In this document: piece after piece, positions 53,567 through 54,875 of the stretch
Numbering within the stretch: position 1 is the first letter of the stretch
Layout of the letters: each line of letters begins with the position of its first letter
IMG/VR virus record: IMGVR_UViG_3300010318_000003
Location: 1 to 57,774 of that record
Direction: 5' to 3' (one strand)
From: a virus
Taxonomy: Duplodnaviria > Caudoviricetes
Length of the DNA: 57,774 nt
Translations under genes and position numbers: made by a program
Notes under the pieces: model-generated
What the model saw: the letters and a program-made list of their open reading frames with translations, nothing else
The model's database searches: none
What the model was told of the DNA's origin: nothing

Positions 53567-53717
53567 GCACAGGGCCTTCGGGCCCACAAAATGTCATTAT
53601 TGCGACGGCAGAGGATTTTTAATAATTTTTTGCACCTCTTCCGAGGGAAAAATACTGCCGAGTTTGGTAGAAGAATGCGAGCACTGCAATGAAACTGGAG
53701 TCCTTCAAAAAAATTAG
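53550..53717 (+). CDS. Small zinc-finger protein, 55 aa (not in ORF track)
   Basis: MTKQ...CHYCDGRG...CEHCNETG, a DnaJ-type CxxCxGxG pair; overlaps both neighbours. Confidence 0.65.
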   Translation: MTKQTEHRAFGPTKCHYCDGRGFLIIFCTSSEGKILPSLVEECEHCNETGVLQKN

Positions 53718-54183
53718 TCCGTTAGCTAAAGAACAAATTCTTGTTCTAAACGCGTCATACGAGCCAATTAATATTACGTCGTGGAAAAGAGCATTTGTGC
53801 TTCTTTTAAAAGACAAGGCTCAAGTTATTTCTGATACGGTTATAAAACTTACAAACTTTATAAGAATTCCTTATAATAAAATGATGAGAGCTAAGCCTTC
53901 TAGGCAGTCAATTTATATTAGAGATAACCATAAGTGCCAGTATTGTGGGTCTACAAGAAAGCTTACCATAGATCACGTAATTCCAAAATCTAGGGGTGGC
54001 GATGATAGCTGGGAAAATCTTGTAGTTGCCTGCAGTAGATGCAACACTCTAAAGGGAAACACTCCCTTAGAGCAGTGCAGCTTAAAGCTTTCAAGAAAGC
54101 CTACTAAGCCAAGAACTCACTTAGATTTAACTTTGTATAAATCTAGTAACGAAGAGTGGAAAGAATACTGCTTTATTGTTTAA
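53689..54183 (+). CDS. HNH endonuclease (McrA-like, cyanobacterial type)
   Basis: ILVLNASYEP, RDNHKCQYCG, LTIDHVIPKSRGG..SWENLVVACSRCNTLKG. Confidence 0.9.
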   Translation: MKLESFKKISPLAKEQILVLNASYEPINITSWKRAFVLLLKDKAQVISDTVIKLTNFIRIPYNKMMRAKPSRQSIYIRDNHKCQYCGSTRKLTIDHVIPKSRGGDDSWENLVVACSRCNTLKGNTPLEQCSLKLSRKPTKPRTHLDLTLYKSSNEEWKEYCFIV

Positions 54184-54227
54184 AATATAATAGGAGTATG
54201 ATATAGTATATTCCTACGTTCATCCAG

Positions 54228-54428
54228 ATGCTTAGTTTACTTCTGGCTTTTACCTTAGTACACCACGCAGACGATTCCTCCTACGGGTGGCACATGTCGT
54301 GTGAAAGGTTCCAACAAAGAAAAGTTGAAATCTCTATGGATAACAACTTAGATCAAAAATCTAAGTATAATCTTATTGGTTATCTTAAGTCAAAGGTTGA
54401 AGGTGAATGCAACAGCAAACTAATCTAG
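54228..54428 (+). CDS. Small two-Cys hypothetical protein (ORF inside the outer P2 loop)
   Basis: 66 aa; hydrophobic N-terminus; Cys25/Cys61. Confidence 0.7.
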   Translation: MLSLLLAFTLVHHADDSSYGWHMSCERFQQRKVEISMDNNLDQKSKYNLIGYLKSKVEGECNSKLI

Positions 54429-54464
54429 GACGCAAGTAAGTCGCGCAACGGATACGTTGATCCT

Positions 54465-54635
54465 ATGATAGATATACTTTTATACACCTCTTTAACTTGT
54501 TCTCAGGCTGACGCAGTTATGCTTAAGATCAAAAACAACGATCATATGTCGAAGGAAATTCGCATTGAACTTTTAGAAGTGGTAAAAGAATCTAACCCAA
54601 ATTGTAAATTTGGCGCATGGGACGCAAACGACTGA
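54465..54635 (+). CDS. Small two-Cys hypothetical protein, 56 aa (ORF inside the inner P2 loop; not in ORF track)
   Basis: MIDILLYTSLTCSQADAVMLKIKNNDHMSKEIRIELLEVVKESNPNCKFGAWDAND. Confidence 0.7.
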   Translation: MIDILLYTSLTCSQADAVMLKIKNNDHMSKEIRIELLEVVKESNPNCKFGAWDAND

Positions 54636-54685
54636 AGGAACGGATAAGCCTAATAACCTTATACCTAAACTTCAGGAGAAAACAA

Positions 54686-54823
54686 ATGACCACAGCAACC
54701 TACAGAGGAATTCAGTACAACGTCAAGGCCGAGCTTAACGAGCTCTCTATTATTAAGAAGAGACTCGAGAAGGTAGAAAAACTCTATAACGCTCAGCTCG
54801 TAATGGCAGGCAAAAAAGGGTAA
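54686..54823 (+). CDS. DUF4278-like ('downstream peptide') small protein
   Basis: MTTATYRGIQY has the YRGxxY signature; AGGAG RBS at 54674-54678; lies downstream of glutamine aptamers as in cyanobacteria. Confidence 0.8.
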   Translation: MTTATYRGIQYNVKAELNELSIIKKRLEKVEKLYNAQLVMAGKKG

Positions 54824-54844
54824 CTGATAAGTAATATATATAGC

Positions 54845-54872
54845 AAAGGGGGCTCATTGGCCCCCGTTTTTT
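54845..54872. terminator. Bidirectional rho-independent terminator
   Basis: AAA-GGGGGC-TCATTG-GCCCCC-GTTTTTT between convergent genes. Confidence 0.8.
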
Positions 54873-54875
54873 ATG

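Follow-up and report, generated by a model that had tools for sequence, protein, structure and literature searches.

Small protein genes as predicted hairpin loops of a glutamine-riboswitch-class RNA in a T4-like cyanophage and its relatives

Riboswitch aptamers are usually treated as compact, non-coding leaders. For the glutamine riboswitch class, previous work has described the RNA itself, tandem copies of it and an association with short DUF4278-like peptides (PMC2864571 and PMC6212724), and PMC9964418 lists glnA RNAs for cyanophages and tabulates a 99-nt match to the Rfam family RF01739 in S-CREM1. In this study we followed up a preliminary description of a viral sequence of 57,774 nucleotides (IMG/VR record IMGVR_UViG_3300010318_000003, positions 1 to 57,774; hereafter the window), which had claimed that whole protein-coding open reading frames (ORFs) form the P2 loops of aptamers, with start and stop codons built into the stems. 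As judged from sequence comparison, this cyanophage and many of its relatives carry two complete small protein genes inside what appear to be hairpin loops of a glutamine-riboswitch-class RNA. Four conserved half-sites of such an RNA were located in the window between 54217 and 54643, and both P2 hairpins are closed across gene-filled loops, of 208 nt for ORF1 (in P2) and 162 nt for ORF2 (in P2'). Taking all parts of our best explanation jointly, we consider it probable that positions 54214-54875 are a single promoter-to-terminator unit with a leader of this class. The features of the unit are as follows:

54179-54207 (+), sigma-70-type promoter-like site, TTTAAA, 17 nt, TG-TATAGT, with the -10 box at 54202-54207
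54214 (+), possible transcript 5' end, 7 nt past the -10 box (a weak hint)
54217-54222 (+), half-site A, CGUUC (P1 5' strand) plus A; invariant; equals RF01739 consensus positions 3-8
54223-54229 (+), P2 5' strand, UCCAGAU, with the first two bases (A, U) of the ORF1 start codon; pair probabilities 0.50-0.87
54228-54428 (+), ORF1, 66 aa, phrog_6471, two-Cys helical hairpin protein; occupies the P2 loop
54423-54430 (+), P2 3' strand, AUCU-A-GGA, including the ORF1 stop UAG (54426-28), with A54427 bulged
54431-54438 (+), core a, CGC (linking strand) plus AAGUA (loop E 5' half); invariant; RF01739 consensus CGGAAGUA
54439-54443 (+), P3 5' strand, AGUCG, with its partner at 54629-33; from covariation and the Rfam alignment of compact relatives
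54446-54451 (+), half-site a3', CAACG plus G (GAACGG in most relatives); local pairing with 54455-59, probability 0.99
54455-54460 (+), half-site B, CGUUG plus A (CGUUCA in most relatives); its G compensates C54446
54461-54467 (+), P2' 5' strand, UCCUAUG, including the ORF2 start codon; in the minimum-free-energy fold
54465-54635 (+), ORF2, 56 aa, phrog_504, ORF1 paralogue; occupies the P2' loop and continues through the core
54616-54622 (+), P2' 3' strand, CAUGGGA, spanning the codon for Trp and the beginning of that for Asp in ORF2
54623-54643 (+), core b, CGC-AAA, P3 3' strand CGACU (54629-33), GAAG (loop E 3' half) and GAACG plus G (P1 3' strand, 54638-43); invariant, with frozen synonymous sites and the ORF2 stop UGA at 54633-35; fits the RF01739 consensus GAAGGAACG
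54632-54637 (+), anti-Shine-Dalgarno strand, CUGAAG, overlapping the ORF2 stop codon; partner 54670-75, probability >=0.99
54670-54678 (+), CUUCAG (54670-75) overlapping the ORF3 Shine-Dalgarno AGGAG (54674-78)
54686-54823 (+), ORF3, 45 aa, YRG motif, downstream peptide gene; partial phrog_545 match
54848-54875 (+), intrinsic-terminator-like hairpin (54848-65) with T run

The locus resembles RF01739 (glnA RNA) in its core letters (CGUUCA, CGC-AAGUA and GAAGGAACGG), in its P1, P2 hairpin, loop E and P3 when read as a nested fold, and in its marine cyanobacterial and phage setting, and compact relatives of the locus exceed the gathering score of that family. It differs in that its P2 loop is protein-coding and 208 nt long, versus ~4 nt in RF01739, that its P3 encloses a second aptamer-like unit with a gene of its own, and that the window falls below any Rfam score. 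With RF01704 (the Downstream-peptide motif) it shares the ligand-pocket letters and a position in front of a short YRG-motif peptide gene, possibly of the DUF4278/IF17-like kind; the second unit of a compact relative (L009; loci and genomes carry our own L and G labels) scores 23.7 bits with that model, and the RF01704 aptamer still assembles and works as two separate RNAs (PMC6698751). Unlike in RF01704, no clear type-II P2 helix follows GGAACGG on its 3' side, the score is <33 bits, and the unit, which is permuted or nested, contains ORF2. As proposed for the gifB riboswitch (PMC6212724), the anti-Shine-Dalgarno strand comes from the 3' core, and as in tandem glnA RNAs (PMC2864571) there are two ligand-pocket-forming units in one leader, which the a3'-B/P3 helix could couple.

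What distinguishes the locus from tandem or cooperative riboswitches is that its units appear to share strands (a domain swap) and that each encloses a gene. The glycine riboswitch is a tandem and cooperative riboswitch that also has two ligand-pocket units in one leader. ORFs are found in the peripheral loops of group I and group II introns, where their products serve the intron in homing or as maturases, and in the mgtA leader translation of the embedded short regulatory peptide mgtL selects between alternative leader structures. Like these systems, the locus would be a structured functional RNA that tolerates or uses a translated ORF within its fold; unlike them, its ORFs are conserved proteins of 50-75 aa under purifying selection, with starts and stops that are part of a putative ligand-binding aptamer. 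The full-text literature searched, with supplements and some key papers outside its scope, contained no report of protein genes in aptamer hairpin loops or of a nested arrangement. Here conserved genes would be the hairpin loops, their start and stop codons doubling as stem or core nucleotides, in an arrangement that is widespread and includes well-studied phages such as syn9.

The membership of these elements in the glutamine riboswitch class is supported by core letters that fit the RF01739 and RF01704 consensus and by compact relatives above the Rfam threshold. The RF01739 core letters CGUUCA, CG(G/C)AAGUA and GAAGGAACG(G) are present in the window and are invariant in four phages and in sets of 37 and 48 relatives. 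Among the window, syn9, S-TIM5 and S-IOM18, three blocks are unvarying whereas the ORF interiors vary: CGTTCA shortly 5' of the ATGs of ORF1 and ORF2 (CGTTGA before ORF2 in the window), GGACGCAAGTAAGTCGCG-AACGG in the gap between ORF1 and ORF2, and TGGGACGCAAACGACTGAAGGAACGG at the end of ORF2. In the glutamine riboswitch, the conserved positions are concentrated in a pseudoknot helix at the glutamine site; this helix is formed by C1-C5 with G36-G40, a G18 triple and a C19:G41 pair (PMC6698751). The window letters CGUUC, CGC and GGAACGG correspond to these glutamine-site nucleotides, with the exception of the less conserved C5:G36 position, where the window departs from the consensus twice (C54446 and G54459). 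As in RF01739, a P2 hairpin supported by covariation lies directly between CGUUCA and CGC, and loop E and P3 lie between AAGUA and GAAGG, the latter only under the nested reading (54439-43 with 54629-33). Neither a score of 33 bits nor a P2 helix 3' of GGAACGG, as in RF01704, was found.

One result counts against this assignment: the window has no RF01739 or RF01704 match at the Rfam gathering thresholds (35 and 33 bits, respectively) or at E values up to 10. The genomes of syn9, S-TIM5 and S-IOM18 likewise have no glutamine-family match at the locus, and the best RF01704 scores were 4.7 bits over 9 nt in the window and 9.7-10.7 bits in the three phage genomes, there elsewhere than at the locus. 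Matches in the window to the Freshwater-2, snoRNA and L20-leader families (E values of 2-6) were taken as chance. We attribute the low score of the window to the model, which cannot span loops of 162 and 208 nt. Consistent with this explanation, a pattern scan and a junction scan identified compact relatives of the locus, with hairpin loops no longer than 3-10 nt, and six of them reach at least 35 bits with RF01739 (L008, 50.5; L106, 43.6; L147, 40.3; L203, 37.7; L188, 37.1; L010, 36.4), while L009 scores 33.4 bits and its second unit, scored with RF01704 as given above, has non-standard pairs in the type-II P2 helix. In the three RNA blocks the window is identical to L106 at 14/14, 33/37 and 25/26 positions. 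The earlier suspicion that long coding loops conceal such elements from covariance searches is borne out by these results, the window and three isolates being unmatched and compact relatives scoring 36-50 bits, and the blind spot extends to every long-loop form.

The complementarity of P2 across ORF1, on which the preliminary description depended, is retained in homologues: in 37 equal-length sequences P1 plus P2 were 87.1% paired, versus 33-44% with a slid partner, and the observed pairing, the double-change count and the covariation score of the ORF1-type stem were each reached by none of 500 shuffles. At P2 pair 3 (12/214) the 37 sequences have U-A (18), C-G (17) or U-G (2) and none is unpaired; at pair 4 they have C-G (13), U-A (6) or U-G (1), and 17 are unpaired (the A-A class). 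As a result of this covariation, the stop codons UGA, UAA and UAG are mirrored by UCUC, UCUU and UCC(U/A), respectively, before the AUG. The ORF1 AUG is itself paired in these sequences, its A with U in 37/37, its U with A or G in 26/37 and its G with C or U in 37/37. In the window, P2 of ORF1 is formed of 3 bp, a bulged A and 4 bp. For P2', the first five pairs in the 48-sequence ORF2 subset are invariant and there is no covariation (87/500 shuffles reach the observed pairing), which counts against our explanation; position 4 in 106 distinct stems, of which ~4 were mis-anchored by the motif, is C-G in 77, U-A in 17 and U-G in 9. In the compact forms, pair 12/28 is UA in 11, AU in 4, CG in 2 and GC in 1, and pair 67/80, in the second stem (P2'), is UA in 9, CG in 9 and GC in 1. 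The long-range P2 helices have a median pair probability of 0.70-0.77 by RNAfold, versus 0.86-0.93 in the compact forms.

The natural series of loop architectures was determined with a junction scan that was blind to ORFs and covered at least 120 loci, in which 111 units were recognised by motifs. The units were distributed as follows:

first loop compact, second loop compact: at least 19 units
first loop compact, second loop long: at least 67 units
first loop long, second loop compact: at least 3 units
first loop long, second loop long: at least 20 units
second half not found: at least 2 units

Long-loop forms are therefore the majority (90/111 units), in counts of sequences and not of events, the contigs not being independent lineages. 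The same locus with no, one or two embedded genes constitutes a natural experiment on how folding, ligand sensing and translation are coupled. These data also bear on the possibility that insertion of the ORFs inactivated the aptamers and that the blocks were kept as translation signals, RNase sites or protein-binding sites. The lack of an Rfam match in the window would fit such a relic, as would the kinetic demands of folding over 160-210 nt, but the core letters are invariant in 48/48 sequences, synonymous sites included, P2 complementarity over ~200 nt is maintained via compensatory changes, the anti-Shine-Dalgarno helix covaries, and a relic does not sit easily with long loops being the commonest form. 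We consider this explanation very unlikely.

The loops themselves behave as genes. In the window, the ATG of ORF1 (54228-54428) follows CGTTCA (54217-22) and TCCAG, and its TAG (54426-28) lies in ATC-TAG-GA abutting CGCAAG; the ATG of ORF2 (54465-54635) follows CGTTGA-TCCT, and its last codons, TGG GAC GCA AAC GAC TGA, are the aptamer core. In the window, no Shine-Dalgarno of the AGGAG type adjoins either ORF. All of this agrees with the preliminary description. To extend these observations, half-sites were located by anchored motifs across all stored loci. An intact, loop-filling ATG ORF was present in 86/86 distinct long ORF1-type loops and in 138/139 distinct long ORF2-type loops, the sole other ORF2-type loop appearing to start with TTG. 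The ATG stands 4 nt past CGUUCA in 57/86 ORF1-type and 127/139 ORF2-type loops, and 5 nt past it in a further 16 and 9. The ORF1 stop is the U-R-R immediately 5' of GA-CGC in 70/86 and the UAA of AAGUAAG in 7, while the ORF2 stop is the UGA or UAA of CU(G/A)AAGG at the commonest offset in 103/139. The length of the ORF2-type loop is divisible by three in 126/139. Median pairwise dN/dS was 0.136 for ORF1 (318 usable pairs, all <0.5) and 0.291 for ORF2 (306 usable pairs, 279 of them <0.5). Non-coding loops are ruled out by the dN/dS values and the integrity of the ORFs, and the check on selection that had been proposed at the outset thus came out in favour of real genes. The proposed check for synonymous-site constraint at the WDAND codons of ORF2 gave a similarly clear outcome: third-position entropies were 0, 0, 0, 0 and 0.15 bits in 48 sequences, compared to a mean of 1.46 bits over ORF2 codons 2-48 of the same sequences, and one first position within these codons varies, giving N, H or D. 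This pattern supports the view that RNA constraint overrides coding at the end of ORF2.

ORF1 and ORF2 belong to function-unassigned PHROGs families (phrog_6471 and phrog_504), and neither has a Pfam match. In a profile comparison the two families align such that both of their cysteines correspond (probability 66.6%, E = 5e-5), which identifies the genes as paralogues, and by eye other loop ORFs likewise keep a Cys-X35-40-Cys spacing. AlphaFold models of both are helical hairpins (pLDDT 80.6 for ORF1 and 79.0 for ORF2), for which Foldseek gave no PDB match at E<=0.001 (23 at E<=10) and an Atlas structure search returned viral hypothetical clusters only (0.86-0.88). Of 301 genomes searched in the family of G001, none yielded the ORF2 family and two yielded the ORF1 family, namely the contig that yielded L011 and G234. 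The picocyanobacterial chromosome G234:C1 has two longer ORF1 homologues (L213 and L214, at ~1.2576 and 1.3010 Mb) with an open frame of 103 aa and an HHND-PYGWHMSCERF motif; no CGTTCA, GCAAGTAAG or GGAACGG, that is, no aptamer halves, was found near these copies. In most relatives with an ORF2 loop, GGAG is present 10 nt upstream of the ORF2 ATG (junction AG in 96 long versus 1 compact), and it is possible that it serves as a weak Shine-Dalgarno, though the association is confounded by lineage. Several divergent members of the two-Cys family occupy the second loop in other loci (L139 at 2090-2310, L133, L012-L014, L094, L103 and others); some have signal-peptide-like N-termini (MKYILLFSLLLFPTTSFA..., MKFLLPLLLLTSPTYA...), and the loop ORF of L139 has its own AGGAGG within the stem.

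How the half-sites are joined is the point on which we depart in part from the preliminary description: the glutamine-class half-sites with gene-filled P2 stems stand, while simple tandem P1 pairing is less likely than a nested, or domain-swapped, arrangement. Since every P1 strand reads CGUUC or GAACG, each 5' half could find a partner in either 3' half. In the most likely fold, an outer type-I aptamer encloses a second unit. The outer aptamer would have P1 at 54217-21 with 54638-42, a P2 that holds ORF1, a loop E of AAGUA with GAAG, and P3 at 54439-43/54629-33; within P3 there would be a circularly permuted, second aptamer-like unit made up of the hairpin 54446-50/54455-59, P2' with ORF2, and CGC. 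This fold is supported, though not proven, by several lines of evidence. Block a alone has AAGUA and block b alone has GAAG, such that only the nested reading yields a unit with both loop E halves. In the Rfam alignment, L106 and L147 each form a single aptamer (87 and 97 nt, respectively) with P3 inserts of 38 and 46 nt, P3 opening past AAGUA and closing before GAAGG. P3 shows compensatory changes (AGUCA/UGACU in L131 and L171, AGUUG/CAACU in L198 and GUCAA/UUGAC in L010), and its 16 distinct combinations have a mean of 4.5/5 positions paired, compared to 4.15 for shuffled partners, a level that 0/2000 shuffles reached. RNAalifold on 19 compact units gave the nested fold, with outer P1 and inner hairpin. 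Lastly, CAACG and CGUUG co-occur in the window and in L049/L050, and no sequence has a single change; the double change preserves the a3'-B pair and disrupts pair five in each of the tandem P1 helices. This last comparison is informative only for loci not chosen by the junction pattern, and both lineages may share one event.

The alternative to the nested fold is that of two independent tandem aptamers, A (54217-21) with a3' (54446-50) and B (54455-59) with b3' (54638-42), in which the a3'-B hairpin and the AGUCG/CGACU helix would be confined to the ligand-free state. Tandem glnA RNAs have been reported (PMC2864571), single-unit Rfam scores in the tandem register are appreciable (37.7 for L203, 37.1 for L188, 36.4 for L010, and 33.4 and 23.7 for L009), the Prochlorococcus-type class could form a small AG/CU hairpin within each linker, and a mismatch at C5:G36 may be tolerated, this being among the less conserved core pairs (PMC6698751). 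Set against these points, neither window unit in the tandem register has both loop E halves, the CAACG/CGUUG change breaks the fifth pair of both of its P1 helices while keeping a3'-B, the above-threshold Rfam matches of the window's own class (L106 and L147) cover the whole double element, and RNAalifold yields the nested fold. We therefore regard independent tandem aptamers as rather unlikely. Three considerations nevertheless detract from the nested fold: the register rests on few events (1-2 lineages for CAACG/CGUUG and 16 P3 combinations), the P1 strands being invariant; the Prochlorococcus-type class has a C-A mismatch in P3, and Rfam there favours a tandem second unit (L203, L188); and the P3 helix and inner hairpin could be features of the ligand-free state only. 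We also tried a permuted single aptamer, a-B, closed by UAGGA/UCCUA, which fits the window and does not fit syn9, S-TIM5 or S-IOM18; its probability in the predicted fold is 0.03, and it was rejected for P2, only its P1-type a3'-B hairpin being retained.

Downstream of the nested core, CUGAAG (54632-37) pairs with CUUCAG (54670-75) at the ORF3 AGGAG. The variable base of the stop codon and its partner are G-C in 71, G-U in 39, A-U in 36 and A-C in none of 146 distinct sequences, which were left after the removal of 17 without a recognisable site from 163. This covarying anti-Shine-Dalgarno helix is thus predicted to connect the core to the downstream peptide gene. In the gifB riboswitch, glutamine binding has been proposed to withdraw a strand that blocks the ribosome site (PMC6212724), a logic with which the present helix agrees. 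The ORF3 counterpart in syn9, gp198, resembles DUF4278 (E = 1e-4; 22.9 bits, under the 25.3 cut-off), while the window ORF3 has no Pfam match and matches phrog_545 over residues 17-41 only. ORF3 of the window seems rearranged relative to gp198, with the YRG motif first and then a segment resembling the gp198 N-terminus (LIKK...AQL).

The geometry of the unit suggests that glutamine would repress ORF1 and ORF2 while activating ORF3, and it is reasonable to infer from the same geometry, as the preliminary description did, that folding and translation of the loop genes are mutually exclusive. Without glutamine, CUGAAG would keep the ORF3 ribosome site closed; with glutamine, outer P1 and loop E would remove CUGAAGGAACG and ORF3 would be translated, and the closed fold would bury the start codons of ORF1 and ORF2. 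If transcription starts at position 54214, ORF1 would have a 14-nt leader consisting entirely of the aptamer 5' half, and the ORF2 start would lie in P2', so that an initiating ribosome would have to hold the 5' strands open and the closed fold would have to hide the starts. The loop genes might then be translated mainly before the 3' strands exist or while the fold is open. A ribosome on the ORF1 start or the ORF2 stop would prevent or undo the fold, and one terminating on ORF2 could mechanically open the anti-Shine-Dalgarno helix and release the ORF3 site. On this basis, which is one of ribosome footprints and riboswitch logic, we tentatively propose as a possibility that a single ligand-sensing fold acts as a three-gene, two-direction translational switch gated by ribosomes. 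If this is true, closure of the nested aptamers by glutamine buries two starts and leaves a third gene with its ribosome site open, ribosomes on ORF1 and ORF2 block or reset the sensor such that the phage integrates glutamine level with translational activity, and the domain-swapped, permuted double aptamer is a new riboswitch architecture. Three small phage proteins of unassigned function would in this way be tied to a nitrogen-status signal of the host.

Two observations weigh against such a switch. RNAfold forms P2 and P2' without ligand, which implies that occlusion of the start codons may be constitutive and not dependent on glutamine, and the standalone ORF1 homologues in a host chromosome imply that the ORF1 protein is independent of the RNA context. 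With regard to the former, the P2 probabilities obtained without a ligand term could mean that the loop genes are translated in the seconds before the 3' strands are transcribed, glutamine adding stability. The chromosomal homologues also favour an alternative explanation, in which a strongly transcribed leader merely tolerates insertions in its P2 loops and the small genes came to lie there and were compacted. ORF3 would then be the sole target of the riboswitch, and the placing of start and stop codons within stems would reflect genome economy rather than regulation. The occurrence of all four loop architectures in nature indicates that the ORFs are dispensable for the RNA, and in the crystallised RNA the stem-loop equivalent to P2 is capped by a UUCG tetraloop (Huang et al. 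2019, as given in PMC6698751), with the conserved nucleotides away from the loop, from which we infer that the loop has no part in ligand binding. The loop ORF with its own AGGAGG (L139) points the same way, and the junction GGAG, which tracks long ORF2 loops, could be an ordinary Shine-Dalgarno. Against passenger genes of this kind, the start is 4-5 nt past CGUUCA in 73/86 and 136/139 distinct loops, with no leader of its own, and the ORF1 AUG is itself paired. From established footprints, a ribosome there must cover the aptamer 5' half, which entails some interference whatever its adaptive value. We consider it somewhat unlikely that the loop genes are passengers only.

Evidence that the proposed unit is transcribed comes from promoter-like sites and RNA libraries. 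A TTGAC-type -35 and a TATAAT-type -10 are at a constant distance from CGTTCA in 149-160 distinct relatives, with the -10 ending 8-10 nt before CGUUCA. Contigs of four metatranscriptome runs cover 53882-54756, 53947-54756, 54287-54756 and 54168-54837 of the window, the last with one letter different, and one RNA-library contig begins at 54214, immediately after sequencing-adapter letters. These contigs carry less weight than they might, given that DNA carry-over is possible and that they do not show strand, level or true ends. The contigs of three RNA runs stop at 54756, shortly past a terminator-like hairpin at 54731-45. The same runs also yielded contigs of related phages, with similarity confined to the conserved RNA blocks (54426-54467 and 54615-54643) and in some cases with a compact first aptamer, that have word depths of up to ~1140 compared to 27-30 for the window-identical contigs, depths that are not readable as expression. 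An inverted repeat at 54193-54215, with counterparts within the 28 nt preceding CGTTCA in relatives, has the -10 box in its loop; its arms vary between phages yet stay complementary (e.g., GGTCTATAATAGACC and GTGTTAGTATTAACAC), with a best arm of >=6 nt in 111/149 distinct sequences versus 28/149 shuffled. This repeat may act either at the DNA level, as an operator, or within RNA that starts further upstream.

The virus is a T4-like cyanophage, with its nearest isolates in the S-TIM5 group (~71% identity), and in the window the riboswitch unit is preceded by nrdA, a MazG-like ORF and an HNH endonuclease gene. A blastn search of cyanophage genome records with a 1401-nt query from the locus matched 229, mostly in only part of the ORF1/ORF2 region, and the locus was present on >100 viral contigs. 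In syn9 the counterparts of ORF1, ORF2 and ORF3 are gp196, gp197 and gp198, each annotated as hypothetical. The HNH endonuclease gene (53689-54183) is immediately upstream of the unit in the window and in S-TIM5; in syn9 and S-IOM18 there is no HNH gene at the equivalent place, and nrdB and a small ORF are upstream of the unit instead. The viral contig L106, which has a compact double glutamine aptamer, also has a PhotoRC-II RNA (RF01717, 57.1 bits) at 1021-1116.

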